A stretch of DNA of 64,000 bases from Mayamaea pseudoterrestris (Eukaryota): the NCBI GenBank assembly GCA_027923505.1, contig BROI01000001.1, positions 1,302,001 through 1,366,000 of the forward strand, written 5' to 3'. The notes beneath the pieces are model-generated. The model had not been told where the DNA came from and ran no database searches. It saw only the letters and a program-made list of their open reading frames with translations. Within the stretch, counting starts at the first letter, position 1; each line of letters starts with the position of its first letter. The translations under genes were made by a program, and so were the position numbers. Of this stretch, positions 1,950 to 50,699 are shown in pieces.

Positions 1950-4900
1950 AGCTATGGGCATCTAATAAAAAGCATGGCAGCTGCTGGCTGAGACTGGTGA
2001 CTAGTTGTCACCAATCACATTGCAGTCTACTCATGGACCAGCCAGGCAATGCATCTTGCAATGCACCTTGAATAAAGATGTCAGCGCCATTCCGGCTTGA
2101 CACACACATGGCTCAAGGTATGGGCGTTTGAATAGGATGGTAGCATAACATCTGCTGGCTGAGACTGGTGATAAAATGTCACCAATCACATTGCAGTCTA
2201 CCCAGGGACTAGCCCGGCAATGAATCTTGTAGCGCACCTGATATAAGGATGTTAGCACCATTCTGGCTTGATTGAGGCATGCACACATGGCTCAAGGTAG
2301 GGGCGTTTGAAAGGCATGGCAGCTGCTGGCTGAGACTGGTGACAAGTTATCACCAATCCCATTGCAGCCTACCAAGGGACCAGCCAGGCAAGACATCTTG
2401 TAGCGCACCTGAAATAAGGATGTTAGCACCATTCTGGCTTTCTATAGGGTTACACATGGCTCTAGGTTAGGGCGTATGAAAGGCATGGCAGCTGCTGGCT
2501 GAGACTGGTGACTAGGTATCACCAATCACATTCCAGTTTAGTGAGACACCAGCCAGTCAACTTATCTTGTAGTGCACCTGAAATAAGGAGGTTAGCACCA
2601 TTGTGGCTTAATTGGAGCATACACATGACTCTAAGTATGGGCATTTGAAAGGCATGGCAGCTGCTGGCTGAGGCTGGTGACGAGTTGTCACCAATCCCAT
2701 TGCAGTCTACCCTGGGACCAGCCAGGCAATGCATCATGTAGCTCACCTGCAATAAGGATGTTAGCACCATTCTGGCTTTCTTTAGGCATACACATGGCTC
2801 TAGGTAGGGTGTATGAAAGGCATGGCAGCTGCTGGCTGAGACCGGTGAATAGGTATCAAAAATCACATTCCAGTTGAGTGAGACACCAGCCAGTCAACTT
2901 ATCTTGTAGTGCACCTGAAATAAGGAGGTTAGCACCATTCTGGCTTATTTGGAGCATACACATGACTCTAAGTATGGGCATTTGAAAGGCATGGCAGCTG
3001 CTGGCTGAGGCTGGTGATGAGTTGTCACCAATCCCATTGCAGTCTACCCTGGGACCAGCCAGGCAATGCATCATGTAGCTCACCTGCAATAAGGATGTTA
3101 GCAGCATTCATGCTTGATTTGGGCGTGCACACATGGCTCTAAATATGGGCATTTGAAAGGCATGGCAGCTGCTGGCTGAGACTGGTGACTTGTTGTCACC
3201 AATGTCATTGCAGTCTATGAAAGGACTAGCCAGGCAATGCATCTTGCAGTGCACCTTACAGTAAATTAAGGATGTTAGCACCATTCTGGCTTGATTTGTG
3301 CATGCACACATGGCACTAGGTATGGGACTTTGAAATCATAACATCTTCTGGCTGAGACTGGTGATAAAATGCCACCGATCACATTGTAGTCTACCCAGGG
3401 ACTAGCCCGGCAAAGAATCTCATAGCGCACCTGATATAAGGATGTTAGCACCATTCTGGCTTGATTGAGGCATGCACACATGGCTCAAGGTAGGGGCGTT
3501 TGAAAGGCATGGCAGCTGCTGGCTGAGACTGGTGACTAGTTGTCACCAATGCCTTTGCAGCTGACCAAGGGACCAGCCAGGCAAGGCATCTTGTAGCGCA
3601 CCTGAAATAAGAATGTTAGCACCATTCTGGCTTGGTTTGGGCATGCACATGGCTCTAGGTATGGGTGTTTGAAAGGCATGGCAGCTCCTGGCTGAGACTG
3701 GTGTCAAGTTGTCAGCAACACATTGCAGTCTACGGAAGGACCAGCCAGACAATTCATCTTGTAGCGCACCTGATAAAATGAATGTTAGCAGCATTCTTGC
3801 TTGATTTCCGCATACACATGGCTCGACGTATGGGTGTTTGAAAGGCATGGCAGCTGCTGGCTGAGAATGGTGACACATTGTCACCCATCACATTGCAGTC
3901 TACCCATGGACAAGCCAGGCAATGCATCTTGCAATGCACCTTACAGTAAATTAAGAATGTTAGCACCATTCTGGCTTGATTTGCACATGCATACATGGCA
4001 CTAGGTATGGGCCTTTGAAATCATAACATCTGCTGGCTGAGACTGGTGATAAAATGTCACCCATCACATTGCAGTCTACCCAGGGACTAGCCCGGCAATG
4101 AATCTTGTAGCGCACCTGATATAAGGATGTTAGCACCATTCTGGCTTGATTGAGGCATGCACACATGGCTCAAGGTAGGGGCGTTTGAAAGGCATGGCAG
4201 CTGCTGGCCAAGACTGGTGACAAGGTGTCACCAATCCCATTGCAGTCTACCAAGGGACCAGCCAGGCGAGGCATCTTGTAGCGCACCTGAAATAAGGTTG
4301 TTAGCAGCATTTTTGGCTTGATGTTGGCAAACACATGGCTCTAGGTAGGGGTGTATGAAAGGCATGGGAGCTGCTGACTGAGACTGGTGATAAGTTGTCA
4401 CCAATCCCATTGCAGTCTACAAAGGGACCAGCCAGGCAATGCATCATGTAGCCCACCTGCAATAAGGATGTTTACAGCCTTCTGGCTTGATTTGGGCGTG
4501 CACACATGGCTCAATGGGCGTTAGAAAGGCATGGCAGCTGCTGGCTGAGACTGGTGACTTGCTGTCACCAGTCTCATTGCAGTCTATGAAAGGACCAGCC
4601 AGATGATGCATCTTGCAGTGCACCTTACAGTATATTTAGGATGTTAGCATCATTCTGGCTTGATTTGGGCTTACACATGGCTCTAAGTTTGGGTTTTTGA
4701 AAGGCATGGCAGCTGCTGCCTGAGACTGGTGACAAGTTATCACCAATTCCATTGCAGTCTACCAAGGAACCAGCACCTGAAATAAGAATGTTAGCACCAT
4801 TCTGGCTTGGTTTGGGCATGCACATGGCTCTAGGTATGGGTGTTTGAAAGGCATGGCAGCTGCTGACTGAGACTGGTGATAAGTTGTCACCAATCCCATT

Positions 4901-7900
4901 GCAGTCTACAAAGGGACCAGCCAGGCAATGCATCATGTAGCTCACCTGCAATAAGGATGTTTACAGCCTTCTGGCTTGATTTGGGCGTGCACACATGGCT
5001 CTAAATATGGGCATTTGAAAGGCATGGCAGCTGCTGGCTGAGACTGGTGACTTGTTGTCACCAATCTCATTGCAGTCTATGAAAGGACCAGCCAGGTAAT
5101 GCATCTTGCAGTGCACCTTACAGTAAATTAAAGGATGTTAGCACCATTCTGGCTTGATTTGCGCATGCACACATGGCACTAGGTATGGGCCTTTGAAAGG
5201 CATGGCAGCTGCTGGCTGAGACTGGTGACGAGTTGTCACCAATCCCATTGCAGTCTACCCTGGGACCAGCCAGGCAATGCATCAAGTCATGAAGTAGTTA
5301 CCTGCACCATGTGCAGCTGCTGATTGGCAGAGACCTGGGGAAGAAAGGCATGGCAGCTGCTGGATGAGACTGGTGTCAAGTTGTCAGCAATCACATTGCA
5401 GTCTACCCAGGGACTAGCACGGCAATGCATCATGTAGCTCACCTGCAATAAGGATGTTAGCAGCATTCTGGCTTGATTTGGGCGTGCACACATGGCTCAA
5501 TGGGCGTTAGAAAGGCATGGCAGCTGCTGGCTGAGACTGGTGACTTGTTGTCACCAATCTCATTGCAGTCTATCCATGGACCAGCCAGGCAATGCATCTT
5601 GTAGTGCTCCTAAAATAAGGATGTTAGCAGCATCCTGGCTTGATTTTGGCACACACATGGCTCTAGGTAGGGCGTTTGAAAGGCATGGCAGCTGCTGGCT
5701 GAGACTGGTGACACATTGTCACCAATCACATTGCAGTCTATCCATGGACCAGCCAGGCAATGCATCTTGTAGCACTCCTAAAATAAGGATGTTAGCACCA
5801 TTCTGGCTTAATTGGGGCGTGCAAATTACTCTAAGTATGGGCATTTGAAAGGCATGGCAGCTGCTGGCTGAGACTGGTGGCAAGTTATCGCCAATCCCAT
5901 TGCAGTATACCATGGGACCAGCCAGGCAAGGCATCTTGTAGCGCACCTGAAATAAGGATGTTAGCACCATTCTGGCTTGGTTTGGGCATGCAAATGGCTC
6001 TAGGTATGGGTGTTTGAAAGGCATGGCAGCTGCTGGTTAAAATTGGTGACTAGGTATTACCAATCACTTTCCAGTCTACCAAGAGACCAGCCAGGCAAGG
6101 CATCATTTAATGCACCTGAAATAAGAATGTTAGCACCATTCTGGCTTGATTGAGGCATGCACACATGGCTCAAGGTAGGGGCGTTTGAAAGGCATGGCAG
6201 CTGCTGGCTAAGACTGGTGACAAGTTATCACCAATCCCATTGCAGTCTACCAAGGGACCAGCCAGGCAATGCATCATGTACCTCACCTGCAATAAGGATG
6301 TTTACAGCCTTCTGGCTTGATTTGGGCGTGCACACATGGCTCAATGGGGTTAAAAAGGCATGGCAGCTGCTGGCTGAGACTGGTGACTTGTTGTCACCAA
6401 TCTCATTGCAGTCTATGAAAGGACCAGCCAGGTGATGCTTCATGCAGTGCACCTTACAGTAAATTAAGGATGTTAGCACCATTCTAGCTTGGTTTGGGCA
6501 TGCACATGGCTCTAGGTATGGGTGTTTGAAAGGCATGGCAGCTGCTGGATGAGACTGGTGTCAAGTTGTCAGCAATCACATTGCAGTCTACCCAGGGACT
6601 AGCACGGCAATGCATCATGTAGCTCACCTGCAATAAGGATGTTAGCAGCATTCTGGCTTGATTTGGGCGTGCACACATGGCTCAATGGGCGTTAGAAAGG
6701 CATGGCAGCTGCTGGCTGAGACTGGTGACTTGTTGTCACCAATCTCATTGCAGTCTATCCATGGACCAGCCAGGCAATGCATCTTGTAGTGCTCCTAAAA
6801 TAAGGATGTTAGCACCATTCTGGCTTAATTGGGGCGTACACATTACTCTAAGTATGGGCATTTGAAAGGCATGGCAGCTGCTGGCTGAGACTGGTGGCAA
6901 GTTATCGCCAATCCCATTGCAGTATACCATGGGACCAGCCAGGCAAGGCATCTTGTAGCGCACCTGAAATAAGGATGTTAGCACCATTCTGGCTTGGTTT
7001 GGGCATGCAAATGGCTCTAGGTATGGGTGTTTGAAAGGCATGGCAGCTGCTGGATGAGACTGGTTTCAAGTTGTCAGCAATCACATTGCAGTCTACTCAG
7101 GGACTAGCACGGCAATGCATCATGTAGCTCACCTGCAATAAGGATGTTTACAGCCTTCTGGCTTGATTTGGGCGTGCACACATGGCTCAATGGGGTTAGA
7201 AAGGCATGGCAGCTGCTGGCTGAGACTGGTGACTTGTTGTCACCAATCTCATTGCAGTCTATGAAAGGACCAGCCAGGTGATGCTTCTTGCAGTGCACCT
7301 TACAGTAAATTAAGGATGTTAGCACCATTCTGGCTTGGTTTGGGCATGCACATGGCTCTAGGTATGGGTGTTTGAAAGGCATGGCAGCTGCTGGATGAGA
7401 CTGGTGTCAAGTTGTCAGCAATCACATTGCAGTCTACCCAGGGACTAGCACGGCAATGCATCATGTAGCTCACCTGCAATAAGGATGTTAGCAGCATTCT
7501 GGCTTGATTTGGGCGTGCACACATGGCTCAATGGGCGTTAGAAAGGCATGGCAGCTGCTGGCTGAGACTGGTGACTTGTTGTCACCAATCTCATTGCAGT
7601 CTATCCATGGACCAGCCAGGCAATGCATCTTGCAGTGCACGTAACAGTAAATTAAGGATGTTAGCACCATTCTGGCTTGGTTTGGGCATGCACATGGCTC
7701 TAGGTATGGGTGTTTGAAAGGCATGGCAGCTGCTAGCTGAGAATGGTGACAAATTGTCACCCATCACATTGCAGTCTACCCTTGGACCAGCCAAGTAATG
7801 CATCTTGCAATGCACCTTACAGTAAATTAAGATTGTTAGCACCATTCTGGCTTGGTTTGGGCATGCAAATGGCTCTAGGTATGGGTGTTTGAAAGGCATG

Positions 7901-9230
7901 GCAGCTGCTGGGTGAGATTGGTGACTAGTTATTACCAATTACTTTCCAGTCTACCAAGGGACCAGCCAGGCAAGGCATCATTTAACGCACCTGAAATAAG
8001 GATGTTTGCACCATTCTGGCTTGATTTTGGCACACACATGGCTCTAGGTAGGGCGTTTGAAAGGCATGGCAGCTGCTGGCTGAGACTGGAGACAAGATGT
8101 CACCAATCATATTGCAGTCTACCCATGGACCAGCCAGGCAATGCATCTTGTAGCGCTCCTAAAATAAGGATGTTAGCACCATTCTGGCTCAATTTGGGGT
8201 GTACACATGGCTCTAAGTATGGGCATTTGAAAGGCATGGCAGCTGCTGGCTGAGACTGGTGGCAAGTAATTGCCAATCCCATTGCAGTATACCATAGGAC
8301 CAGCCAGGCAAGGCATCTTGTAGCGCACCTGAAATAAGGATGTTAGCACCATTCTGGCTTTTTTAGGCATACACATGGCTCTAGGAAGGGGTGTATGAAA
8401 GGCATGGCAGCTGCTGGCTGAGACTGGTGACTAGGTATCACCAATCACTTTCCAGTCTACCAAGGGACCAGCCAGGCAAGGCATCATTTAACGCACCTGA
8501 AATAAGGATGTTAGCACCATTCTGGCTTGATTTGGGCATTCACATGGCTCTAGGTTTGGGTGTTTGAAAGGCATGGCAGCTGCTGGCTGAGACTGGTGAC
8601 AAGTTATCACCCATCCCATTGCAGTCTACCAAGGGACCAGCCAGGCAATGCATCATGTAGCTCACCTGCAATAAGGATGTTTACAGCCTTCTGGCTTGAT
8701 TTGGGCAAGCACACATGGCTCAATGGGCGTTAGAAAGGCATGGCAGCTGCTGGCTGAGACTGGTGACTTGTTGTCACCAATCTCATTGCAGTCTATGAAA
8801 GAACCAGCCAGGTGATGCATCTTGCAGTGCACCTTGCAGTAAATTAAGGATGTTAGCACCATTCTGGCTTGATTTGCACATGCACACATGGCACTAGGTA
8901 TGGGCCTTTGAAATCATAACATCTGCTGGCTGAGACTGGTGATAAAATGTGTACCCAGGGACCAGCCAGGCAATGCATCTTGTAGTGCACCTGCAATAAG
9001 GATGTAAGCAGCATTCTGGCTTGATTGAGGCATGCACACATGGCTCAAGATAGGGGCATTTGAAAGGCATGGCAGCTGCTGGCTGAGACTGGTGACTAGG
9101 TATCACCAATCCCATTACAGTCTACCAATGGACCAGCCTGGCAAGGCATCTTGTAGCGCACCTGAAGTAAGGATCCTAGCACCATTCTTGTTTTTATGGG
9201 TCATGGACATGGCTCTGAGAATGTGTTGTT
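1950..9230. repeat. Tandem satellite array A, monomer about 168-175 bp, roughly 40 copies, degenerate copies at both edges
   Basis: The anchor GAAAGGCATGGCAGCTGCTGGCTGAGACTGGTGAC recurs at 2309, 2478, 2647, 2815, 2984, 3155 and onward. The many short ORFs here are just translations of the repeat. Confidence 0.97.
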
Positions 9231-13488: not shown

Positions 13489-14736
13489 TCACTCTTGCTG
13501 TGGACCAACGCAATTATCTTGCTCTTTCAATCGTTGATACAATGCCAGCGCCTGACTCGCCATGGACAAGGCCACGGTTGGAATGGACTCTCGCTCCGCT
13601 TTCGACGTGACGGCATATTGATACAAGACTGGACTTCCTCCAGCAAACGGCGAATGCACCAGTCGACGTTTCTTCTGGCGCAATGGATCATGGTTTTCAC
13701 TGTCCGGCCGCTTGGCGCCGGCGGAAACCCACGACTTTGACGCCATGATGAATTCAATGTGCTGCAGCAGCTGCACTTGGATTGGCAACAATTTGGGCTC
13801 GTGGTTGCGCAGATAGTTGGCATATAGTCGTCGCTGATTGTGCGCCCAGCTGGCGAGATTGCGACCGTCGTGCGTCACGTGTGGATCAATGACAAAGTTG
13901 CCATGTGTTTGAAAGTGCAATTGCAAGCCTTGCAGCATGACGTTGAAGCGCTCCTCGTCGCTTCTAATGTCTATCAGCGAGCTATTTGGATCAAGATTGA
14001 CACCAATGGATTGCAGTCGATCAATGCGCGCTTCGGAGAGCATGGACGAAACATATCTTTGACGCTGATGTTTCAACCAATCCTGCAGACTGTGATTCTC
14101 GCACATGTAGCCCGTCGACACATTGAAGGAATTGAATCGTCTACGAAAGTCTACTAGTCCATTGAACATACTGCACCATTGCACATCATCAATGGCATCG
14201 TTCTGTCCCTGCGCTCCCGTCGGATCCAGTTCGAACCCAATCTCCTGCAGCTTTTGAATGCGACACGGCAGCAACGCGGGCGACCGGCCGCGAATGCCGT
14301 TCAAATAATGCTTGCGGTTGTTGCGGACCCACTCGTAGAGGTTCTTGTTGTTCCAGCGATAGCCGCGCGGCACGTTGAGCGAGCCATGGTGGCGTTGTTG
14401 AAAATCCAGCAAGCCTAGCAGCATGCCCATCCAGCGAGCGTCCGAGTCGGTCGTGTCTTCGGGTGTTGCTGTTGCTGTTGTTGCTGCGGCTGGTCGGGGA
14501 AGGACATCCAACCTATTTGAAAATGACTTTTCCTTTATCTCAATGTTAGAAGGACTGCTTGATTTTGGTGTTTGACCGTCAGTAACCTTCGTCTCTGTTG
14601 CTGCTTCGCCATTCGGTTGCTCGCCCTGATCTGAAGCGGCAGCTACTGCAGCAGGTGGAGGTGCGTTCCCATCACTATTGACAGGAGCTACAGGCTCTTC
14701 CCCATCCTGCCTTGCTTCCGTCGAGCTAGTAGACAT
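13489..14736 (-). CDS. Helicase-associated (HA) repeat protein, three repeats
   Basis: Repeats of the form W..M..GL.DF..R....NV.....L..W...QR..Y...L...RI..LQ.IG. The likely ATG (MSTSSTE) is at 14736, just after a CAG acceptor conserved in both copies; the ORF is open to 14805. Confidence 0.85.
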   Translation of the reverse strand: MSTSSTEARQDGEEPVAPVNSDGNAPPPAAVAAASDQGEQPNGEAATETKVTDGQTPKSSSPSNIEIKEKSFSNRLDVLPRPAAATTATATPEDTTDSDARWMGMLLGLLDFQQRHHGSLNVPRGYRWNNKNLYEWVRNNRKHYLNGIRGRSPALLPCRIQKLQEIGFELDPTGAQGQNDAIDDVQWCSMFNGLVDFRRRFNSFNVSTGYMCENHSLQDWLKHQRQRYVSSMLSEARIDRLQSIGVNLDPNSSLIDIRSDEERFNVMLQGLQLHFQTHGNFVIDPHVTHDGRNLASWAHNQRRLYANYLRNHEPKLLPIQVQLLQHIEFIMASKSWVSAGAKRPDSENHDPLRQKKRRLVHSPFAGGSPVLYQYAVTSKAERESIPTVALSMASQALALYQRLKEQDNCVGPQQE

Positions 14737-14779
14737 ACTCCTGGAGGATGCAGGTGAAAAAGTAGCTAGAACGTAATTC

Positions 14780-15035
14780 GCTTGAACGTTGTGAATGGTA
14801 GGCAAGTTACTCTACGGAAGGATGGCGACGCGACGGTCATGTGGTCGCTGACCGTATCAAATGTCTGGGCGGGAACGCTGCGCCCTTTCTGGTGCGATTC
14901 CAATATTGCCCTTCGGGGAAATGACACTTTTTAAAGGCAACAGGGACGCTCAATCTTGCATTGCCCGCCCATGTCGTTCGACTCCGACCCCCCGTCATTG
15001 ACACTTACCTCGAGTGACACGATCGAACATCCGCG
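14780..15035 (-). other. Highly conserved, putatively structured non-coding element in a candidate 5'-UTR intron (15008..14741) of the HA gene
   Basis: 251/256 identical to 50444..50699 with no indels, while the flanks diverge. Nested inverted repeats are present, and a GAG|GTAAGT donor lies at 15008. Confidence 0.55.
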
Positions 15036-16044
15036 CGCAACGAACATGTTCAACATGAGAGAATTGCTGCAGAAAATAAGTACAAATATCCGTATTTGCA
15101 AGCTTACACCAAGCACCAGAGCTAACTTAAACTACTGGGGCATAGAATGAGCGTATTGCTGGCCGCAACTATCGCTAGACGTTGCTCTTTCGAAAAGTAA
15201 AGCAACTGCAAGCTACATTACCGCAGGTGTGAGCCTTGCGCTTGTGAAATAACTGCGCAGAGTAGCGCCTTTGCCTACGAGCTACTCTATAATATATGGT
15301 AGATAGGGCAACAGGTTTATGTATGTAGGCATGCGGTTAGTCACTCGTGAAGGTGTTGCATACAGCATGGTTCTCGACCTCGACTTGGTCGCGTCGCATT
15401 TGTGACTGGAACAAAGCAGGCGACTGAAACAGCTGCTGGTACCTGAGTTGCCATAGCATTGATTCGTTGTCGTTGATGCCAGCACTCATTGCATCGTTTC
15501 ATCAGCAGGTAAGCGATGTCAATAAGAATTCGGAGGATTGCACAAAGCGGTGCTTCTCTCCTGCTCCAGTCGTCACTGCTATTCAACTACGTAGTAAACT
15601 TCTTGGCTACTGCTCCATTTTAGAAAGGCGAAGGACCTGCCGCGCGAAGAATGAGCAGGCGGCGTTTAATGTTTCATTTGGAAGATGAGTGAAAGACTTT
15701 CGCAGAGATCTATTGCCGGCAGTTGAAGTTAGCATCAAGTTCCGGTTACATTTTCCGATATTGAATATTGCTTCACGACCATTGACGTTTCTAGAATATC
15801 AACATGAGTCAAAACAAGAACACGCTGTCGTATGGACATCGATGATACGTTAAAATATCCTATGTAAATGACGATGACTGCTATCATGGTTCGGCCATGT
15901 AGTTTGCTTCCCGGCCGATGCAGGGAGGTTTGCCAAAAATGGAGGCGCGCTGAGTAAGCGCTCACATCACATATTGGCAAGAAGCTGCAATAAACGCAAA
16001 CTACGGACACACCATCTACTTAACTTAACAAGTCACTTACTCTG

Positions 16045-16401
16045 ATGCTCACTACTTCCTGTTCAATCGGCTCGCACTTGGACCTTCTCGTCGTCACTCG
16101 CGACTACGCACCTCGAAAGCCGATGCGGTCCAACGAATGTGCACCTAGCCCACCAAGACGAAAAAATTCGACGAGTAGACAAAGACCGCGAGCCCTTTCG
16201 TATCCAGAAGACAAACCTCCTCGACGACCTCAACGATCGTTCCACAAATTGCACCAGATTGCGCAGGATGGTGTCGGGCGGGGGCAAAACGATGATGGCG
16301 ACAAGGACACGGAGGCGACCGATACGAGCGACAGGAGTGATGGCCTTCAAGATTCCACGAGCTCAATCATTGCATCTGCCTGCGTCGTCCACGTGCCATG
16401 A
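16045..16401 (+). CDS. Small basic Pro/Arg-rich hypothetical protein (PRKPMRS, PPRRPQRS motifs)
   Basis: Start, stop and frame are conserved in the duplicate 51744..52097 (net 3 nt length difference) while the flanks carry many indels. Confidence 0.65.
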   Translation: MLTTSCSIGSHLDLLVVTRDYAPRKPMRSNECAPSPPRRKNSTSRQRPRALSYPEDKPPRRPQRSFHKLHQIAQDGVGRGQNDDGDKDTEATDTSDRSDGLQDSTSSIIASACVVHVP

Positions 16402-21154: not shown

Positions 21155-21527
21155 TGTTAGAAAGTACGGTTGTACAATACCAAATAAAGACTCTGCAATT
21201 GCTAACGATACTCGATATTATGACCTTATTCTGCTGCAAACTACCATCGCTCCTCTCGCATCTTCAAGAGGTATCCTCTTCTGCAACTTGCCTCAAGTTG
21301 CACTCAATATAGAGCATAAAGTAGCCATTCGGGCTGACGTTTGCACTTAACCACGTAAGCTTGTAGACTGACGCAAGCTCTTCTTGCAATTCAAGTTGAA
21401 TCGCACCTTGTTGCTTTCTTTGGACCGTTTTGGCTTCTTGCGGGTTACCTCAGTCCACTCATCGTTAGCTAACTCATCCTCATCCTTAAGTCGGTCCGAG
21501 CACCGTGAAGACTTGCTATTCACAACA
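21155..21527 (-). repeat. 3' LTR (373 bp)
   Basis: Plus strand TGTTAGAAAG...TTCACAACA; matches 26582..26954. Confidence 0.97.
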
Positions 21528-24500
21528 CCCTCCTTGCTCGTATCGACGACCTTTCTGAAACCATTATAGATGAACGCAGCATGCCTCGTATGCGTCTCCT
21601 CCTTGCAATTCTTTGACGTTATATCAGCAGGGTTCTCTTCCGACTTGATGTACTCAAATTTGATCCGTTTCTCCGCCGTCAGCTCCGTCAGGAACCGATG
21701 CCTAATGTCAATGTGTTTCGTCCTTTGTCCCACTTGATTATTATCTGCCAAGAATATCGCACCAGTGTTATCCGCATGGATGATAGCTGGGCTTGGAGGA
21801 TCCTTGCCAATGATTTCCTTTAACAAGTTCGTCTCGAAGATGATTTCTTTTGCTTCTTCCGCTTGACCAACGTACTCGGCTTCAGTACTTGAAAGGGCAA
21901 CGCTTCCTTGTTTCTTCGACTGCCAACTAACCAAGCAGTTGCCTCCGACCGTTGTCAAGTTGCTATTGATGCTGCGCCGATCGTTCTTATCGGACGCCCA
22001 ATCAGTGTCGGTGTATCCTTCCGGGCGCAAGTTCTCTGGCGTCCTCAACTTCAATGGCTTGGCGTTATGCTTTAGATATCCCATCAAGCGTGCCAACGCC
22101 TTCCAATGCTCCTTTCCAGGATTCGCCAAGTGCGATGACAAGTCTCTAACCGCGTTGCTGCAATCTGGGTAGACCTTCCTCACAGCGAAGAGCACTTTGC
22201 CGATATGCTTTCGATACGCCGCCACGTTGATGATGCTTCCTTCGTTCTTCATCAAGACGCTCCCTCCTGCCGCTGGGGTTGGATAGAACTTGAGCTCCCT
22301 CCTGATATCCTTTTCGAACGCCGCTATCATCTCGTCGGTATACTGTTTCATCGAGCACTCGAAGTACACGCCGTGCTCGTCCGATTTCAACTCGTAGTCC
22401 ACGCCAAGGAATCGTTCCAACGGACCCAAGTCCTTGATCTCGACGTGCTGCTTGATCCAAGCTTTCAACTTGTCCGTCTCGCTTGTGTAGCCCGAGTTGA
22501 TAACGTCGTCAACGTAAACCGTCACGATCAAGACCAGTTCGCCGTCGACATGCTTTAGAAAGACGCACGGATCCGTCTTCGACTGCACCAAGTTCATGTG
22601 CTTCGCATCCTTGAGCAGCTTGATAAAGTACTGCTGCCACAGCCTCGACGCGTTCACTTGTCCATACTGGGTCATCGACAGACGAATGCAGTGTGTCGTG
22701 CGATTGAATGTCCTTCCTTGCGACGCGCAATAGTCTTCGTAAAGGACTGGCGCCTCGATGTACAGCTCCGTCTCCGCTGGCGCTTGCAAGAATGCCGCGC
22801 ATACATCGAACACTTCCGCCACTTTCCACATCTCCGTTCGCTTTGCATTGACTCGCTTGCCTGCATCCAACTGCTTCTTCTTGTATAGCGACACACCAAG
22901 ATGAGTGCGGATTGATTGATCGACGGGCGTCGACGCAAAACTCTCTTCAAAATCAATTCCTGGCACCATTTCGTATCCAAGCACGGTGTTGCTTACACGC
23001 GCTTCAATCTCCTTTGTGATCGGATTCATCTTGTACGTAAAGACGTTCTTCGTTCCAAGTGTCTTTCGATTGGGAGGACGAGGGACTTCAGTCCACGCTT
23101 TGCCATCAAACTTGCCATACTCAATGAACGTAGGTTGCTCCCAAGTGGCTCGATTCTGCTCATTGTACGCCTCCCTCCAGTTCTTCGGGACAGGCGGTGG
23201 CGACTTGCCTGAAACCACAGCAAAGACTAGATCTGCAAGGTTAACTGGATCCTCATGGTCACTTGTGATGGATCCTCCCTCCTCGATTGCAATCACGGGC
23301 GCGCCAGCCGTGCCATCCTCGCCGCTAACGTCGCCAACTCCGATAGGTGCGCCACCATGTGAAAGTTGTTCTCCAGCTTCGATCTCCTCCGTTAAATCAA
23401 CCACAGCTCCACGATCAATCACCTCGTTTAGTACGCGACCTTGCATCAACTGCTGTCCATGGTCAACTTCGATATCAGCAGCTGAATCCCTCCTCAAGGG
23501 AGCACCACGAGAACGAGTCATGATCGGTGAGCGCAGCGGCACATTGCGCGGCGGGCGAGGGCCAGTGCGCGCCGGCGCAGTCGTGCCATCATCCTCCACT
23601 TTTCCATCCGGAGGCATTCCACCATGACCAAAGCTCCCCAACGATTCATCGTCAGACTCTTCAAAGAAACCTTCTTCATTTCCATCATCGTCGTCTTCTG
23701 TACCCTTTTTAACGAAAGGATAGACCCACCGAACATCTTTTGTGGCAATCACTTTGCGTGTGGATCGCTTGTAAACCAAGCACGTTCCTGCAGCGTGGCG
23801 TGGAGCGTGTCCCACATAAAAGCATTCTTCCGCCTTGGGGACAAAATGGCGTTGATTCACCATGGGGATCTTGTAATAACCACGCGCTCCAAAGGGAAGC
23901 AGATTCTTTGCTCGCACAGGCACAGTCTCTTTGAAAGGGGTGTAAGCGTCGGTATATCCAAGGCGCGGAATCAAATTGTCCTTTACCGTCGCCAGCTCGA
24001 GGCAATTTCCCCACAACGCCATCGTCTCAGCGTGGGTCAACTGATTCTCCTCAGCCATCATACTTGCGTGTCCCTTGTTGCGGATTGTTGGAAACGCTCT
24101 CTCCACACGGCCGTTCTGCATTGGCGTGTGAGGCGCCGTCTGCTCTATCTTGATTCCTCGAACCAAGCATGGCTCGACAAGCAGCTCCCATTCTGGTGCG
24201 TTGTCGCAACGAAGAAAACGACAACGGAACTCCTTCGCCTTTAACCAATCAATCAACGCAACAATCTGCTCGGTAAACTCGTTCTTCTGAGCGCCAAAGT
24301 AGCTCCACTTGCGACGAGTTGCATCATCGACGATCAAGCACCAGTAACGATTCTTGCCGAGAGACTCTTTATACGGACCGCTCAAGTCGAGAAACAAACG
24401 CTCTCCAGGATGCTTTGCCTCTATCTCCGTCTTCTTCTTCACGTTCTGCGACTTAGCTTTCGCCTTCTCGCAAGCAACGCAAAAGTCCAACGTTCCGACA

Positions 24501-26542
24501 AGCTTCCAACCAAATTGTTTCGCCATGAGCTTTAAGTGCGACATACCAACGTGTCCCAAGCGACAGTGCGCCTCGTTGATATCAATTCGACGCATTGGCG
24601 GCGCCGAATCATCCGTCCCTTTATCAAGCGCAACACCAGCAGCTTCTCCAAGCGAAAGAGACAACGTGCGCTGCTGCGTCTGCTCGTCGCGCGAAGCTTC
24701 CAAGTAAAAGAGCTTTCCATCGGGGTCACGTTCAAAGTTTATTCCACGCTCCCTTCCCTTCGGTGTTGTCCAAGCGACTCGAATACGCTCCTTGCTAACC
24801 GACTTGACGAAGCATCCTTTATCCAAGAGCTTGCTCAAACTGATAATATTGCGAGGAAACTGCGCCATGATCGGTACCTCCGTCAAGACAAAACGAGTAC
24901 CATCTTTCGTCACAAGCGGCAAGTCTCCCATCTGAGTTGCCACGCAGCGAGTTCCATCGGCAATGATCAAGGTACGGTTGCAAGCTCTCAAGTTCACCAT
25001 CGCGTCAGCGCAATGGACTCCGTGCGTTCCGCTGCCCGAGTCCAGCATGTACTTGTTGTCGTAAGCTTCGTCGCGATCCGAGACTGCAAAAACCAAGTGC
25101 TTCTCCTCTTTGTCGACCTGCGATCCATTGGTAAGTGAATTGTTATTATCGATGCTCTCGTTCGGGCGCAACAAGACAGGCATCTCACTCGAATCATCGC
25201 TGTCATATCCACTCAGATTGCGAGGAACCAAGCTCGGAATTGATGATCCGCTTTCAGTGCTTTCGTCGTCCCAATTCGTGTCGCACGGGACCGAATCGCC
25301 ATCTTCGCTATCATTGAAGAAAGACCAGTCATCATCGTCTTCCTCAATCTCCATGGTCGAGCGCTGGTTGCTAATCCATTCGAGCACACCCATTGGCTCT
25401 CCATACGGGGCTGACGTCAGATGCACCTCCGTCGGCAACTCACACGATTCCTCTGACGTCACTGGCACCTCCATCGACTGCTCCTCCATGACGGCCATCA
25501 ACCAAGGATCCTCGTCTTCCGAGTCTTCCGCATTAGAGCGACTGCCTTGACTGCTGTTGCTCTTCTTCTTCGGGCACTTGCTAGCGTAATGACCCTTCTC
25601 ACCGCAAACGAAACAGGTAACTGTCTTCTTCTTGTCGCCGTTTCCTTTGCTGCCGCCGCCGCCATTGTTCTTCGCGTTGCCGCCTTTCTCACCCTTGTCA
25701 TCCTTCTTCTTGTCAGGACAATCGCGCTTGACATGACCAAACTTGTTACACTTGAAGCAGCGTTTCAATGGTGGCTTGCCAGGCCAAGTAGCTAAAGCCA
25801 AGTCGTCGCCTTTCTTGCCTCCCTTGCCGCCTGGGTTTCCGCTCACTTTCCACTCCTCGACAATCAACTCCTTAAAGTCCTTCAAGGTAAACGTTTCCTT
25901 CATAACGTTGCCGCGATGAGCCGAGCAGAAAGGCGCCCAAGCTGTCGAGCGCTGGAGACACTGGAAGATGGTCGACTTCTTCTGATTTTCGTCGTTCATG
26001 TACTTGGGGTCAACATCTCCCAAGCGAGTGTTGGCAAGCTCAAGATCCGCCAACCAATCATGCGCCGTTGTGTAATTCCCCGGGACACAGTCAGAGTACT
26101 CTTTCTGGAGCTGCGGGAGATCCGATATCATGTTGCCAGCCTCGAACTCTTCCTTCAGGAGCTCCCACATGGCAAACGCGGTAGTCTGCGCGCTAACTCG
26201 ACGCATCAGGGCATGATTCTCAATGCTATTGACGATAGCAGCTTGAGCTTTGGCGTTCATCTCATGGAGACGCAACTCTTGGGTAGTCGCTTCGCGAGTG
26301 GTTTTCGTCCCAGTGCTTCTCCCGTTCGAATCCTTCTCCTCCTCCTCAATTTCCATCATGAGGTACTCATCAGGACTCAACAACTTGTGCTTCGCCAACT
26401 TAGACAAGTCCTTGTTCACCGCACCGAGCGCTCCCAACCCTTCAATCAACGCGAGGATCTGCGGCTTCCAGTCCTTCCACGTCTCCTTCAACCCATTCCA
26501 CGGGACTTTGCGTAGGTTCTTGGCTTCCATGGTGCTTGGCAT
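21347..26542 (-). CDS. Copia Gag-Pol polyprotein (1731 aa)
   Basis: Two CCHC knuckles (CFKCNKFGHVKRDC, CFVCGEKGHYASKC), protease LDSG, HCRLGH..CVAC, integrase DLSGP/CDN/VER, RT FDVCAAFL and YVDD, RNase H TDTDWASD/EAEY/DN. Confidence 0.97.
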   Translation of the reverse strand: MPSTMEAKNLRKVPWNGLKETWKDWKPQILALIEGLGALGAVNKDLSKLAKHKLLSPDEYLMMEIEEEEKDSNGRSTGTKTTREATTQELRLHEMNAKAQAAIVNSIENHALMRRVSAQTTAFAMWELLKEEFEAGNMISDLPQLQKEYSDCVPGNYTTAHDWLADLELANTRLGDVDPKYMNDENQKKSTIFQCLQRSTAWAPFCSAHRGNVMKETFTLKDFKELIVEEWKVSGNPGGKGGKKGDDLALATWPGKPPLKRCFKCNKFGHVKRDCPDKKKDDKGEKGGNAKNNGGGGSKGNGDKKKTVTCFVCGEKGHYASKCPKKKSNSSQGSRSNAEDSEDEDPWLMAVMEEQSMEVPVTSEESCELPTEVHLTSAPYGEPMGVLEWISNQRSTMEIEEDDDDWSFFNDSEDGDSVPCDTNWDDESTESGSSIPSLVPRNLSGYDSDDSSEMPVLLRPNESIDNNNSLTNGSQVDKEEKHLVFAVSDRDEAYDNKYMLDSGSGTHGVHCADAMVNLRACNRTLIIADGTRCVATQMGDLPLVTKDGTRFVLTEVPIMAQFPRNIISLSKLLDKGCFVKSVSKERIRVAWTTPKGRERGINFERDPDGKLFYLEASRDEQTQQRTLSLSLGEAAGVALDKGTDDSAPPMRRIDINEAHCRLGHVGMSHLKLMAKQFGWKLVGTLDFCVACEKAKAKSQNVKKKTEIEAKHPGERLFLDLSGPYKESLGKNRYWCLIVDDATRRKWSYFGAQKNEFTEQIVALIDWLKAKEFRCRFLRCDNAPEWELLVEPCLVRGIKIEQTAPHTPMQNGRVERAFPTIRNKGHASMMAEENQLTHAETMALWGNCLELATVKDNLIPRLGYTDAYTPFKETVPVRAKNLLPFGARGYYKIPMVNQRHFVPKAEECFYVGHAPRHAAGTCLVYKRSTRKVIATKDVRWVYPFVKKGTEDDDDGNEEGFFEESDDESLGSFGHGGMPPDGKVEDDGTTAPARTGPRPPRNVPLRSPIMTRSRGAPLRRDSAADIEVDHGQQLMQGRVLNEVIDRGAVVDLTEEIEAGEQLSHGGAPIGVGDVSGEDGTAGAPVIAIEEGGSITSDHEDPVNLADLVFAVVSGKSPPPVPKNWREAYNEQNRATWEQPTFIEYGKFDGKAWTEVPRPPNRKTLGTKNVFTYKMNPITKEIEARVSNTVLGYEMVPGIDFEESFASTPVDQSIRTHLGVSLYKKKQLDAGKRVNAKRTEMWKVAEVFDVCAAFLQAPAETELYIEAPVLYEDYCASQGRTFNRTTHCIRLSMTQYGQVNASRLWQQYFIKLLKDAKHMNLVQSKTDPCVFLKHVDGELVLIVTVYVDDVINSGYTSETDKLKAWIKQHVEIKDLGPLERFLGVDYELKSDEHGVYFECSMKQYTDEMIAAFEKDIRRELKFYPTPAAGGSVLMKNEGSIINVAAYRKHIGKVLFAVRKVYPDCSNAVRDLSSHLANPGKEHWKALARLMGYLKHNAKPLKLRTPENLRPEGYTDTDWASDKNDRRSINSNLTTVGGNCLVSWQSKKQGSVALSSTEAEYVGQAEEAKEIIFETNLLKEIIGKDPPSPAIIHADNTGAIFLADNNQVGQRTKHIDIRHRFLTELTAEKRIKFEYIKSEENPADITSKNCKEETHTRHAAFIYNGFRKVVDTSKEGVVNSKSSRCSDRLKDEDELANDEWTEVTRKKPKRSKESNKVRFNLNCKKSLRQSTSLRG

Positions 26543-26581
26543 CTTGTCTTGAATCCTTTCTAAGTCGATCGTTTTAAAACG

Positions 26582-26954
26582 TGTTAGAAAGTACGGTTGT
26601 ACAATACCAAATAAAGACTCTGCAATTGCTAACGATACTCGATATTATGACCTTATTCTGCTGCAAACTACCATCGCTCCTCTCGCATCTTCAAGAGGTA
26701 TCCTCTTCTGCAACTTGCCTCAAGTTGCACTCAATATAGAGCATAAAGTAGCCATTCGGGCTGACGTTTGCACTTAACCACGTAAGCTTGTAGACTGACG
26801 CAAGCTCTTCTTGCAATTCAAGTTGAATCGCACCTTGTTGCTTTCTTTGGACCGTTTTGGCTTCTTGCGGGTTACCTCAGTCCACTCATCGTTAGCTAAC
26901 TCATCCTCATCCTTAAGTCGGTCCGAGCACCGTGAAGACTTGCTATTCACAACA
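26582..26954 (-). repeat. 5' LTR (373 bp)
   Basis: Matches 21155..21527 base for base on visual comparison. Confidence 0.97.
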
Positions 26955-27501
26955 AACGACATGGTCGGAACGTTGGCATCGCTTTCGTCGTCCGTCTCGT
27001 CAGACACCTTTCGCTGCTGCATGGTCCACGCATGAGCCGTCAGGACGATGCACTCGACCAAGAATCCAATCAAGACGCCGAGAAGCAACGAGACGGTGCA
27101 AAAGCTTGATTGCAGCTTCATGCTGGTCTGAGCGATGCGTCGTTGCTGCGAGTCGTCCGTGGTCGATGCGGCCTGCGGCAATGTTGGCTTCAAAAGGGGT
27201 TCCTCCATCATGGTGCTATTGTAGAGCGTCCGAGTAAATTCTTTGGAAGAAGTAAGTGTTTTGGCATGCATGCATGTTTGCTTTCGACCATGCCTTTTTC
27301 GTCCACGAAAAGTCTTGTAAAGAGGCGCATTCGTCCATGATGATGTTCAAATTCGTCGAGAGAAAAATCTCGTGGTGTCGTAGCGGTGTTCACCACATTC
27401 GATGTGTCGCGGCCTTGTAGCATAGCTATACATTCGGTGATAATAATAATCCTTGCAGTTACTTGGTATTGCACATATGTAATTATAATACAAGCCTTTG
27501 C

Positions 27502-29411: not shown

Positions 29412-30583
29412 TTTGTTACTTGTATATAAATGGGTATTGCTATGGGACTCTTGCTTGCAAAGTCACGTTGATTGGAAGACGAGAGACGACGACCGGAGTT
29501 GGCAAGTGTCATGGTGATTTGCGGCGCGCCATGCGGCCACTGACGTTTCTAAATGTCGCAGCAGTTATTATTTGGTAACGCTGCGACCTTCGCCGACCAA
29601 CGTCTCGCACCACGATGTTTCGGCCTTCTCAGCTCGTCCTTATTTCAAGCTGCCGACAAGCTTTTCAAATATAAGAATCGACTCTATAACGAACGGGCAA
29701 TACGCTAAAAAGCTTGCCTTTTCAACGGGTGTTTTTGTGGGAGTGCTGCAGCGAAAGGGATGCAGAATTACTGTAGCCAATCGAAATTAAAGAAGAGGCA
29801 GTCGAAAAAGAGCTTGGGTCGTGTATACTCCAGGACGAGCCACGCGAAAGGCGTTACTTGGAGTGTGCCGTGATGCCAGCTTACATAAGTAGACACAGTT
29901 TCTATTCACTGGTTCGGCAAAATTGATTGCCGTCGACCACCTCATTGGCCGATGCTGCTTCATTGGTAATCATGCATTCTGCGGCTGATGGTTGTTATCG
30001 ACCCATCGGACATCATCTAACAAGCATATGTCGGCGTTCTTTATGGCCTTGCTCGTCAAAGTCTGCGCCCAGTACCGACTTTCTTGTTGGCTGTAGTTGC
30101 AATGGAGTATTGCTTCGCCATTCTTTGAATATTCAGAAGAGCGCGTCGATTGTTCCAGGCGTCATCATCGGGCGTCACTGTTCACGTTTCCCGGACGGAA
30201 GCGGGAATCTACAGAACTCACTGGATGCTTTCGCGAAAAAGATTCGGTAGTATAAAAATTGGAGTAGTACGTGGCGAGCAAGTGTGACTCACATGAGCTC
30301 GGAGAAGTTATCGGCAGCTTTTCGATATCAAATCATTGAGTATTTCGTTGCCGGTTGAGAAATAGCACGAGGGAGAAGAACATGACGCGCAGTGTTCTAC
30401 TATACCCATGGTCTGATGCGTCGATTGACACATACATTGCCCAATTACATCTTCCCGCTTCCAGCGCGCCTATCGTAGGAAGTTCGGCATATTCGCCGTG
30501 TTCGAAGGAGTAGTCATATTTCACTCTTGTTTCCATTTCTTCGTCCGCAAACGATCCTTCACTTCCAAACGACACGAAGAACC

Positions 30584-33146: not shown

Positions 33147-34455
33147 ATGATGCTTGCCAATCGTTCCTTCGCTCGTTACGTTGAAAAACTCTTCCAAAAT
33201 CGATCATATACAGCAACGAGTGTACATCATGACCGCATTGTGGTAGCTGTAGGCGGCAATGCCCTTCAGCGCCGCGGCGAGCGCCTGACGATTGAAAACA
33301 TGCTCAAGGCGGCTGCCGAAATGGCACCCACCATTGCCGCACTCGCCGCGGAGCATGAGGTGGTCTTGACGCATGGAAACGGACCGCAAGTGGGAGAGTT
33401 GGCGCTGGAGCGATCGGCGGCATCGTACGTATATGCGTCGTGTGTGTCGTTGAATTCCGTGTGATGATTTTATGACCCTGCTTATATCGCACTCAATGAT
33501 GTAATGTCTCTTCTTTATAAACTGCTGTATCTTATCAGATTCGACGTCCTCGGCGCAGAAAGCATGGGCCAGATTGGCTACGTTTTGGCGCAGGCGCTGG
33601 CGAGCGTCGGTTGCCAAACCGTTCCAATCTTGACGCAGGTGGTTGTGGATCAATACTCCGAAGCCTTTCGCAATCCAACCAAATACGTTGGTCCCGTCTA
33701 CGGCGCCAAGGAGGCAATGGCTTTATCCGAGTCACTGGGATGGACGGTTCGAGCCGATGGTGAGTACTGGAGACGAGTGGTTCCTTCGCCTCCGCCGCTG
33801 GAAATCTTGCAGGTGCAGGCCGTCACGTGCCTACTGGAGCATGCGCCGAATTTGCTTCCCATTGCCTGCGGCGGAGGCGGTGTGCCGGTCATGCGAGTGC
33901 CGTCGCGACCGGAAACCTTGCTGGGAGTGGAAGCTGTCATTGATAAAGACATGTGTGGAAGCAAACTGGCGATTGAGATTGAAGCGGATGGCTACATTAT
34001 TTTGACGGATGGAGGAGGTATATTCAAGGTAAGTGCTGTAACGTACAGGTTCCACTCGCTGTTGTCTACTATTTCGAAAACCGGTTCTTAACGCTCTCTT
34101 TGTTCTCATCGTTGGTTTCTCATCGCAGAACTTTGGCAAACCAGACGCTGCTGAAATGAAGGAGGTGACTCCGGAATACTTGCTTGGTACCAAGGCTGGC
34201 AAGGGCTTTCCAGGAAGCATGGGACCAAAGATTGAAGCGGCAATCATGTTTGTTGAGCAATCCAGGAATCCTGACAAGGTATGGGCAGCCATTGGTGACT
34301 TGAAGGATGCCGCAAAGATTATCAAGCGCGAAAAAGGAACAATTATCAAACGAGACGTCAAGGACAATGTGATTTGGTGGGACAAACCACTTGCGTCGTC
34401 AACGTCACCTCCAATGCCTCCCAAGCTGTCCAAGGAGCCGCCAAAGTATGGATAG
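33147..34455 (+). CDS. Carbamate kinase with mitochondrial-type presequence; introns 33425-33538 and 34029-34128
   Basis: IVVAVGGNAL, THGNGPQVG, NPTKYVGP, WRRVVPSP, CGGGGVPV, GVEAVIDKD, GSMGPKIEAA; both GT-AG introns restore the frame. Confidence 0.95.
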
Positions 34456-41525: not shown

Positions 41526-43507
41526 GTAGAACTGGAGACTAGAGGGGCTAGTGATAAATGCTTTGCACTTTCTACATCATATAGCAATGCCTGTCAACTG
41601 CCAGCTATCAATTTATACCTCTCTAACCATTGAAGTTGGTTATGGCAGCTAGCTACCGTGGACAAGCCTGGGGCCACGAAATTCTGGCAGTCCCTGTCAC
41701 AGAACTTGGAGACTAGATGGCTTAGCGAGGAATGCATTGCACTTTCTACAACATGAAACAATGCCTGTCAACTGCCAGCTATCAATTGAAACCTCTCTAG
41801 CTAGTGAAGTGGGTTATGGCAGCCAGCTACTGTGGACTAGCCTGGGGCCACAAAATTCTGGCAGTCCCTGTCATAGATCTTGGAGACATTATGGGCTAGT
41901 GATGAATGCATTGCACTTTCTACATCATGAGACAATGACTGTGCACTGCCAGCTATCAATTGATACCTCTTTGGCCGCTGGAGTGGGTTATGGCAGCCAG
42001 CAACTGTGGACAAGCCTGGGGCCACAAAATTCTGGCAGTCCCTGTCGCAGAACTTGAGGCCTAGATGGCCTAGTGAGGAATGCATTGCACTTTCTACATC
42101 ATGAAACAATGCCCATCAACTGCCAGCTATCAATTGATACCTCTCTGGCTGCTGGAGTGGGTTATGGCAGCCAGCTACTGAGGCACGGGCCCATGGAAAA
42201 ACAAATCAACTGCCAGCTATCAATTGATACCTCTCATGCCACTGGAGTGGGTGATGGCAGCCAGCTACTATGGACAAGTCTGGGGCCACGAAATTCTGGC
42301 AGTCCCTGTCACAGAACTTGAGGACTAGATGGCCTATTGAGGAATGCATTGCACTTTCTACATCACCAAACAATGCCTGTTAACTGCCAACTATCAATTG
42401 ACACCTCTCTGGCCATTGGAGTGGTTATGGCAGCCAGCTACTGTGGACAAGCCTGGGGCCACGAAATTCTGGCAGTCCCTGTTCCAGAACTTGAGGACTA
42501 GATGGCCTAGTGAGGAATGCATAGCACTTTCTACATCATGAAACAATGCCTTTTAACCGCCAGCTACCAATTTATACCTCTTTGGCCGCTGGAGTGGGAA
42601 ATGGCAGCCAGCTACAGTGGACAAGCCTGGGGCCGCAAATTTCAGGTAGTCCCTGTCACAAAACTTGGAGACTACATGGGCTAGTGATGATTGCATTACA
42701 CTTTTGACATCATGGAACAATGCCTGTCAACTGCCAGCTATCAATTCATACCTATCTGGCTGTTGGAGTGGGTTATGGCAACCAGCTACTGTGGACAAGC
42801 CTGGGGACAACAATATTCTGGCAGCTCCTGTCACAGAACTTGGAGACTACATGGGCTGGTGATAAATGCATTACACAATTGACATCATGAAACAATGCCT
42901 GTCAACTGTTAGCTATCAATTCATACCTATCTGGCTGTCGGAGTGGTTCATGGCAGCCAGCAACTGTGGACAAGCGTTGGGCCACAAAATTTTGGCAGTC
43001 CCTGTCACAGAACTTGGAGACAAGATGGGCTAGTGATGAATGCAATGCACTTTTTACATCATGAAACAATGTCTGTCAACTGCCAGCTATCACTTTATAC
43101 CTCTCTTGCTGGTAAAGTGGGTTATGGCAGCCAGCTACTGTGGACAAGCCGCACCCACTGGGGCCACGAATTTTGGGCAGTCCCTGTTGCAGAACTTGGA
43201 AACTAGATGGGCTAGTGAGGAATGCATTGCACTTTTTACATCATGAAACAAAACCTGTCAACTGCCAGCTATCAATTGATTGCTCTCTAGCTAGCGGAGT
43301 GGGTTATGGCAGCCAGCTACTGTGAACAAGCCTGGGGCCACGAAATTCTGGCAGTCCCTGGAGACTAGATGGGCTAGTGAGGAATGCATTGCACTTTCTA
43401 CATCATGACACAAGTCCTGTCAACTGCCAGCTATCAATTGATTGCTCTCTAGCTAGCGGAGTGGGTTATGGCAGCCAGCTACTGTGGACAAGCCTGGGGC
43501 CACAAAG
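41526..43507. repeat. Tandem satellite array B, 174 bp monomer, about 11 copies with internal rearrangements
   Basis: Anchor AGAACTTG at 41701, 41875 (variant) and 42049; partial units near 42180-42210 and 43360. Confidence 0.96.
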
Positions 43508-43720
43508 TTCAGTCTTGTTCCAAGAGTCGTAACAACCTCGGCCATGGCACATGTTGAAATTTGAATAAGCTCAAACCACATCCAATGCTGCGATACATTC
43601 ACTTTTGCATCCATACTGTACGCTAATAACAGATTGAGAGATAGATCATTCAAAACATGTATATCTATAATAACGTTGTGCGACTACTAGCCACCGTCTC
43701 GCACATGAGGTAGAAAGTGG

Positions 43721-45950: not shown

Positions 45951-46948
45951 GGCCGAAACGAACCGCCAAGACGGCTCTTCGTCGCAAGGACGATGATGAC
46001 GTCAATGAAGCGGACAAACGAATTCGCTTCAAGCAGAGGTACATCGATGACGACGATGGGATCCGATACGACTGAGTTACTAGCCGAAGTCCGTCTGAAT
46101 AGTAGCAGCAATAACAACAAGAAGCCCGGAGTCGACTGCATCGTCATCCGCTTCAACGAGCGGAAGAAAGGTCTCCATACCTTTGACTCAGCAGCACACG
46201 GCAACCATCGCGAAGCCATCGAAAAGGACTGGCCGTCAGTACAACATCTCACCATTCTGTAGCTGCACTATCCAATCCTGCTCCCGAATCAGTTACTTGG
46301 TCATCAAGACGGTATACCTTGCAATCTGACGCGCAACAAGTTCCACGTCGGTCCATTGAGGGCGGTCGCCAGTACGTGTTGCGGCGCGTCACGGCCCGCT
46401 TCGACTATCAGCCGGACGTTTTGCAAGGACTACAAGCAGACGGGGTTTGCGGGCCACGGCTTGATACCTGCATCTACTTGCACGATCGGGGTGATTCACT
46501 GTCGGGGTGGCAGTTGGAGGAGCAGTGGCAGTTGCAGCAAAAGCGAAACAGCAGCTGCAGCAACAGGAACTGGATGACTACATGAAGCAGCAGCATGTGG
46601 AATAGTAAAACGAATACTACTACTCCCGCAGCAGCGACTTACAACTTGACGATGGATTGCCCTTTGCCTGTCACTTGTGTCGAAGTGCCTTTGACGAACC
46701 TGGTTGTTACCAATTGCGCACACTACTTTTGTCGAGGCATTTTGCATTTTGAGACATGTTCAAGAAACCTCGGAAGCTTGTCCGATTTGCAGCGCGATAC
46801 GCATGGCGTGTTCAACGAGCCGGACCAAGATAATTGGCGAGAAGAAGCGCAAGCTACTGGGTGCTCAAAAGGCAAAGGAGAATGGTTCATGGAAGGCCTT
46901 TACCAGTTGTTTCCTGCGGACGAGACGGAGAACGACAATGACGAGTAG
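45951..46948 (+). pseudogene. Frameshifted, 5'-clipped copy of Cwc24/RNF113 (pseudogene or sequencing errors)
   Basis: Motif fragments (VTARFDYQPD, CKDYKQTGF, DTCIYLHDRGD, VVTNCAHYFC) are scattered over three frames; the ATG is missing. Confidence 0.75.
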
Positions 46949-50443: not shown

Positions 50444-50699
50444 GCTTGAACGTTGTGAATGGTAGGCAAGTTACTCTACGGAAGGATGGCGACGCGACGG
50501 TCATGTGGTCGCTGACCGCATCAAATGTCTGGGCGGGAACGCTGCGCCCTTTCTGGTGCGATTCCAATATTGCCCTTCGGGGAATTGACACTTTTGAAAG
50601 GCAACAAGGACGCTCAATCTTGCATTGCCCGCCCATGTCGTTCGACTCCGACTCCCCGTCATTGACACTTACCTCGAGTGACACGATCGAACATCCGCG
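50444..50699 (-). other. Second copy of the conserved structured element
   Basis: 5 substitutions relative to 14780..15035. Confidence 0.55.

Follow-up and report, generated by a model that had tools for sequence, protein, structure and literature searches.

Ultraconserved non-coding elements are found in animal splicing-factor genes at sites of unproductive splicing, where they are kept between distant species. Gene conversion typically leaves tracts on a length scale of about 256 bp. For diatoms, we know of almost no regulation at the RNA level that has been characterized. Among eukaryotes, fungi and green algae carry TPP riboswitches (RF00059) within introns, whereas a 3′ UTR position has been predicted for diatoms (PMC4260697; PMC9544697). 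In land plants, a preprint describes the DEAD element, a conserved pre-mRNA structure that controls an alternative splice site in DEAD-box helicase genes, namely DRH1 and its paralog (bioRxiv 10.64898/2026.01.23.701338).

The element analyzed here is a 256-bp block that occurs twice in a stretch of 64,000 nucleotides from contig BROI01000001.1 of the diatom Mayamaea pseudoterrestris (hereafter the window) and that had been put forward in a first-pass annotation as a candidate structured RNA. The window contains a direct segmental duplication of ~25 kb (10212-34882 versus 45952-63999), whose copies A and B align in five pieces at 79-89% identity in a self-comparison. In agreement with the first-pass annotation, the block lies at the 5′ end of an HA-domain gene on the sense strand of that gene (Table 1). 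The 415-residue open reading frame of the HA gene is 100% identical to a database protein of 465 residues (P0001), an entry labelled hypothetical protein from M. pseudoterrestris; the closest non-self protein in the protein collections is 55% identical. Other HA paralogs of this genome are represented by the database proteins P0005 and P0006. Within 399 codons, the two copies of the gene differ at 25 first, 20 second and 62 third codon positions, and these differences show that the HA gene is under coding constraint in both copies.

Table 1. Features of the conserved block and its surroundings. Positions refer to the window; a slash marks the splice site in donor and acceptor motifs and separates the two arms of a helix.
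Feature	Position	Strand	Remarks
HA-domain gene, main exon	13489..14740	-	ATG 14736; three HA repeats; Pfam PF03457, E = 2.2e-34
Conserved block, copy A, 256 bp	14780..15035	-	98% identical to copy B, 0 indels
Conserved block, copy B	50444..50699	-	Sole other copy in the window (blastn with word size 7, nhmmer)
Candidate long intron, 268 nt	14741..15008	-	Donor D1 GAG/GTAAGT, acceptor CCAG/GAGTATG; read from sequence
Public-model intron, 112 nt	14741..14852	-	Donor D2 ACG/GTCAGC, same acceptor as the D1 intron
Public-model exon 1, coding part	14853..14998	-	50-residue basic N-terminal extension, start codon ATG 14998
Upstream ORF, 11 codons (MFDRVTRGKCQ, then stop)	14995..15030	-	Read from sequence; identical in both copies
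Predicted nested-stem core	14866..14971	-	Closing helix UGGGCGGG/CCCGCCCA and inner helices; MFE, centroid and consensus folds
Predicted hairpin ACGGUCA/UGACCGU	14833..14855	-	5′ arm contains donor D2; MFE, centroid and consensus folds
ACUUGCCU	14800..14807	-	Predicted partner of donor D1 (AG/GUAAGU); consensus columns 26-33 with 229-236
Zero-difference tract, 543 bp	33681..34223	+	Amino-acid-kinase gene (PF00696): all of the 99-nt intron 34030-34128 and parts of two exons

Some further elements of the window deserve mention. A plus-strand ORF of 125 residues (16024-16401), without Pfam match and with 9, 7 and 20 differences between the duplicates by codon position, is probably a coding exon of a gene that shares an intergenic region of ~1 kb with the HA gene. 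Copy A alone carries a Ty1/Copia-type LTR retrotransposon (21155-26954) with two LTRs of 373 bp each (21155-21527 and 26582-26954) that are 100% identical, and with a single intact ORF of 1765 residues that comprises a zinc knuckle and RVT_2; we call this insertion recent. A few kb ahead of each copy of the duplication lies a satellite array, one built from ~43 copies of a 169-bp unit (1968-9188) and the other from ~11 copies of a 174-bp unit (41528-43510), and the two units do not match each other in self-BLAST.

An ungapped alignment of the two block copies contains five substitutions in 256 positions (14989 G>A, 14943 C>T, 14932 A>C, 14921 T>A and 14855 A>G on the minus strand), which reproduces the initially described number of substitutions and absence of indels. 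The block had also been described as better conserved than its flanks, and this was borne out by sliding windows of 100 columns, in which identity amounts to 0.97-0.99 inside the block versus 0.63-0.82 in the adjoining sequence on the gene side and 0.71-0.81 upstream. The non-coding DNA flanking the block is 55-80% identical between the copies and contains indels. Four-fold sites differ at 26 of 160 positions in the HA gene and at 78 of 496 in the BTB gene, i.e., at 16% in both cases, and in the amino-acid-kinase gene, a neutral intron (33425-33538) has accumulated ~19 substitutions (about 17%) and five indel events. At a divergence of 16%, the probability of finding five or fewer differences in 256 positions is P = 1e-13. 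Only four segments with six or fewer differences per 256 exist among 17,817 aligned columns; two of these fall into the BTB coding region and one into the kinase gene, and the fourth is the block, their sole non-coding member. Its divergence of 2.0% is lower even than that of the first and second codon positions of the HA gene taken together (45/798 = 5.6%; P = 0.004). The island of near-identity is real and far beyond chance. Additional 100-column windows with no more than two differences are present at 27016-27122 and 30103-30390; these stretches lack a clear ORF with a third-position pattern and may be further conserved non-coding patches or short exons.

The quality of the assembly bears on how closely these numbers can be read. 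As assembled, the HA gene of copy B (49100-50401, minus strand) has its frame broken by about ten indels. Short-read contigs from run X2 carry 24 of 24 copy-B substitutions and none of the seven indel columns in the region corresponding to 13640-14103, and two of two substitutions and none of three indel columns for 14171-14337. As the contigs are free of the indels and the codon pattern is that of coding DNA, the frameshifts are probably consensus errors. The HA gene of copy B is thus probably an intact, unannotated paralog, and it appears to have been missed by the annotation because of the assembly indels. By eye, four of the five substitutions in the block lie in or beside short homopolymers, and since copy B is error-prone, some of them may be errors and the true identity of the block higher still.

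By all tests run, the block is non-coding, as had been proposed. Six-frame ORFs revealed that copy A has no reading frame free of stops across the block; copy B has two such frames, but these have a stop at the matching site in copy A, so that the copies share no frame that is open throughout. Most substitutions are non-synonymous: depending on which of the six frames is considered, three to five of the five alter a residue or a stop. Pfam yielded no match. A HMMER search with the 94-residue frame of copy B against 1.84 billion representatives yielded one match, a zinc-finger repeat protein of 1908 aa (P0014), which we rejected as chance similarity because five weak repeats add up to the score, the ligand pattern of the finger is missing from the query and the frame has a stop in copy A. 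A protein homolog of the block was accordingly not found in these searches.

A long intron in the 5′ UTR had been proposed, with a GAG/GTAAGT donor at 15008 and a CCAG acceptor four bases ahead of the probable start codon. All of these signals are present: the acceptor ends at 14741, four bases ahead of ATG 14736, a start codon used in relatives as well, and the span between the two sites is 268 nt in copy A and 267 nt in copy B. The contigs of four sequencing runs (X2-X5) are DNA-like and free of joints, and they therefore bear on neither splicing nor expression. The public gene model uses a different donor, the one at 14852. Joining 14998-14853 to 14740 onward reproduces the database protein exactly, and 14853/14740 is the only GT..AG junction that gives this protein with canonical ends; the public model places its start codon and its 112-nt intron inside the block. 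According to PMC9724779, the gene models of the species were made by funannotate using RNA-seq; poly(A) RNA-seq libraries, both control and copper-exposed, are described there. Because a model fed with RNA-seq has an exon inside the block, the block is probably transcribed on the minus strand, and we regard the public model as a hint of transcription rather than as proof of a coding frame. Under either reading, the public gene model at this site, with its 50-residue extension and its weak donor, deserves checking. The stop of the upstream ORF (TGA) and the start of the annotated extension (ATG) share bases (ATGA, 14995-14998), a layout that is seen in termination-reinitiation coupling.

Our preferred reading, which we hold tentatively and at a probability of roughly 0.4, is that the block is a sequence-constrained 5′ leader module of the HA gene with two alternative donors and that it sets the choice of donor and start codon. 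The block would begin with the final 27 nt of a short first exon and continue with the first 228 nt of a long 5′-UTR intron; under the public model, it would consist of exon 1 and the first 73 nt of the 112-nt intron. Two donors combined with one acceptor would lead to two kinds of mRNA. Use of the strong donor at 15008 would remove all upstream ATGs but one, and the 415-residue protein would then be made from ATG 14736, whereas use of the weak donor at 14852 would retain ATG 14998 and lead to the 465-residue form. Which of them is chosen would depend on the sequence that separates the donors, including a U1-like stretch with the capacity to mask the strong donor. If the paralogs have been kept near-identical for this purpose, the whole sequence would matter, beyond a few stems, and occasional gene conversion may help to keep the two blocks alike. 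That the block is transcribed, that each donor is used and that there is a regulatory effect at all is our inference.

Several observations support the leader reading: the five differences in 256 positions compared with 16% at four-fold sites and about 17% plus indels in the neutral intron, the two GT donors with a common acceptor four nt before the ATG, the folding bias toward the minus strand and the burial of the strong donor in copy A (see below), the relatives without a counterpart of the extension, the exon that the public model places inside the block, and the fact that the flanks are poor substrates for conversion and that the adjacent coding DNA shows none. It is weakened by fold statistics that are weak, differ between the copies and come without covariation, by the lower divergence of the block compared with codon positions 1 and 2 of its own gene, which is unusual for the regulator of a gene, by evident conversion 19 kb away in the same duplication, and by the outcome of the searches described below, in which no homolog was found.

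Fold statistics were judged against dinucleotide shuffles. On the minus strand, the whole block of copy A folds at -86.2 kcal/mol (z = -1.37), and 21 of 200 shuffles are as good; for copy B, z is -1.41, with 29 of 300 shuffles as good. A structured RNA had been expected to fold better than its shuffles, and the whole block is essentially no better. For a 116-nt core, z decreases to -2.3 in copy A and -3.3 in copy B. This core was chosen after the fold had been seen, and it therefore matters that the best 116-nt window of the shuffles themselves equals it in 48 of 150 cases for copy A and in four of 150 for copy B; after this control for window selection, the core is not significant in copy A and marginal in copy B. 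The MFE and centroid folds, like the consensus of the two sequences, do contain the stems that had been named. Taken alone, the hairpin at 14833..14855 has a z of -1.5 (22 of 300 shuffles as good). The energy gap between the strands (minus minus plus) is -13.9 kcal/mol in copy A, where none of 150 shuffles is as extreme, and -8.5 kcal/mol in copy B (about 1.8 sd); for the plus strand of copy A, the fold is worse than in shuffles (z = +1.57).

The predicted partner of the strong donor, ACUUGCCU, differs by one base from what we take to be the donor-binding end of U1 snRNA. Opening D1 is predicted to cost 10.0 kcal/mol in copy A versus 5.4 +/- 1.9 in shuffles (6/170) and 7.5 kcal/mol versus 5.0 +/- 1.9 in copy B (19/170), while the corresponding values for the weak donor D2 are 7.6 versus 5.8 +/- 1.9 kcal/mol (7/45). 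A control donor elsewhere is not buried (33/40 shuffles). Compensatory double changes occur in none of the 73 consensus pairs, a count that stems from only two sequences differing at five sites. Three of the five substitutions had been thought to keep or improve pairing on the minus strand; in the consensus fold, two do keep a pair by a one-sided change, whereas the other three fall into unpaired columns, and two pairing "improvements" in copy B are mismatches in copy A. With three changes in 110 (P = 8e-6 at 16%), the unpaired columns are conserved like the paired ones. Pairing alone can therefore not explain the conservation. The results of folding are suggestive, but the copies disagree and no single result is decisive; the fold statistics lend no support to a multi-stem or riboswitch reading in particular.

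These folds can also be developed into a bolder model, to which we give only a slim chance. The block might be a self-contained RNA switch, in which the U1-like decoy ACUUGCCU (14807-14800) and the GC-rich nested core would cover the donor at 15008. A factor or a small molecule would open or close the fold, splicing would shift to the weak donor at 14852, and the HA-domain protein would thereby acquire another start codon and another N-terminus. If true, a regulatory RNA that occludes a splice site would be described for the first time in diatoms, and outside vitamin metabolism.

The main rival explanation of the near-identity, somewhat unlikely in our judgment, is interlocus gene conversion: the block would be a patch that was copied fairly recently, and its near-identity would be silent on function. 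Gene conversion calls for a divergence far below that of neutral sites, and this is what the block displays (5/256 versus 16%). The same duplication contains a zero-difference tract (33681-34223) that covers an entire intron of the kinase gene, for which the probability of 0 differences in 99 positions at 17% is P = 1e-8, while the other intron of the kinase gene mentioned above (33425-33538) is heavily diverged between the copies. Judging from this sequence pattern, gene conversion or an equivalent homogenisation has acted at 33681-34223, and the fully identical intron 34030-34128 illustrates that an identical intron need not be functional. The equal conservation of loops and stems, block edges that match no obvious feature and a block length typical of conversion tracts fit the same explanation, as does the position of four of the five differences at homopolymers of copy B, with which the tract would possibly be near-perfect. 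However, conversion also needs enough flanking homology to recombine, and the flanks of the block are only 55-80% identical and interrupted by indels, whereas the kinase tract is embedded in coding DNA that is about 95% identical, a different setting. Better substrates adjoin the block, namely the HA and BTB coding sequences (90-97% identical), and these are without conversion signal: divergence at third positions is evenly spread over the BTB gene (chi-square p = 0.36; 1204 of 2000 permutations match its longest identical run) and nearly so over the HA gene (p = 0.17; 63 of 2000 permutations), so that the better-matched coding DNA beside the block shows no conversion. Conversion confined to the worst local substrate is possible but not favoured, unless the block had already been kept similar. 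Should the block nevertheless be a conversion patch, near-identity of non-coding DNA between paralogs in this duplication would by itself be no evidence of function, as exemplified by the intron 34030-34128.

The remaining explanations carry less weight. It is quite improbable that the block is a true coding first exon, from which a basic extension of 50 residues, possibly an organelle-targeting peptide, would be translated starting at ATG 14998. The exact reproduction of the 465-residue database protein by the public-model junction would be explained, the extension frame is open in both copies, and the peptide contains about 10 basic residues and one acidic residue in a count by eye. On the other hand, all five substitutions fall within 14998-14853 and every one of them is non-synonymous in the extension frame, the block starts 37 nt before the ATG and continues for 73 nt beyond the donor of the model, and next to the GTAAGT and GTACGT donors of the introns checked, this donor (GTCAGC) is a weak one. 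A search of 5.8 billion proteins with the extension returned only the protein itself in the size range of 255-814 residues and nothing among shorter proteins; no counterpart of the extension is present in ten aligned relatives (37-52% identity), eight of which start at their own methionine. We are similarly doubtful about an independent structured ncRNA gene (~250 nt, intron-hosted or stand-alone) or a riboswitch-like ligand sensor, for which the strand-specific folding of copy A, the core z-score of copy B and the abundance of G-U pairs in the helices would speak. Here, the lack of covariation, the conservation of loops on a par with stems and the whole-block z of about -1.4 argue in the opposite direction, and so do the family searches. 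The element had resisted matching by eye to TPP riboswitches, spliceosomal snRNAs, SRP, RNase P/MRP or telomerase, and the Rfam scan likewise named no family: the best values for the two block copies were E = 3.1 to 7.4 (11-17 bits versus cut-offs of 38-72 bits), hence none below E = 3, and no match at gathering score was obtained in the entire window. ARAGORN detected no tRNA-like gene in the block, nor were C/D boxes or permutations of a telomere template found in it, ACA triplets being uninformative. By exact or close matching in collections without a close relative, a 24-mer of the block had no match in metagenome contigs, a 23-mer had none in viral contigs and a gapped stem pattern had none in prokaryote genomes, and of 163 pattern matches obtained with the HA-protein alignment in metagenome contigs, none was confirmed. 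Among the indexed windows of other genomes, no other copy of the block was retrieved, either by sequence or by relatives. With this scope, the empty searches do not argue that homologs are absent. Finally, the identity could be an artefact of assembly or polishing, given that copy B is imperfectly polished and that none of its seven indel columns at 13640-14103 is seen in the run X2 contigs. This is extremely improbable: one X2 contig joins a flank of copy-B type (12 copy-B letters, 14745-14774) directly to the block, the same contig stops at 15035, where the copies diverge again, and polishing is unable to make identity out of about 30% divergence.

How, then, does the putative leader module compare with described systems? 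With interlocus gene-conversion tracts it shares the appearance of an island of near-identity of a few hundred bases between paralogs, for which the kinase gene provides an example 19 kb away; what sets it apart is that the DNA on either side aligns poorly and that the neighbours with a better match are without conversion. Like the TPP riboswitches, the block is a non-coding UTR or intron element that could couple folding to splicing, but it has no Rfam match, its host is not a vitamin gene, and no ligand pocket can be inferred. The DEAD element resembles the block in being a cis element in a gene and its closest paralog, situated at an alternative splice site and with proposed RNA pairing. 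Its structure is described as conserved across land plants and experimentally proven, whereas the block is known from two near-identical copies without covariation and belongs to an HA-repeat gene, not to a helicase core. The conservation of the ultraconserved elements of animals spans distant species, and that of the block has been seen solely in two paralogs from a single genome; like these elements, however, the block is conserved above coding DNA and lies near candidate alternative splice sites with upstream starts and stops. If it is a real cis-regulatory leader, it would represent a compact diatom case of constraint at the sequence level on the choice of splice donor and start codon.
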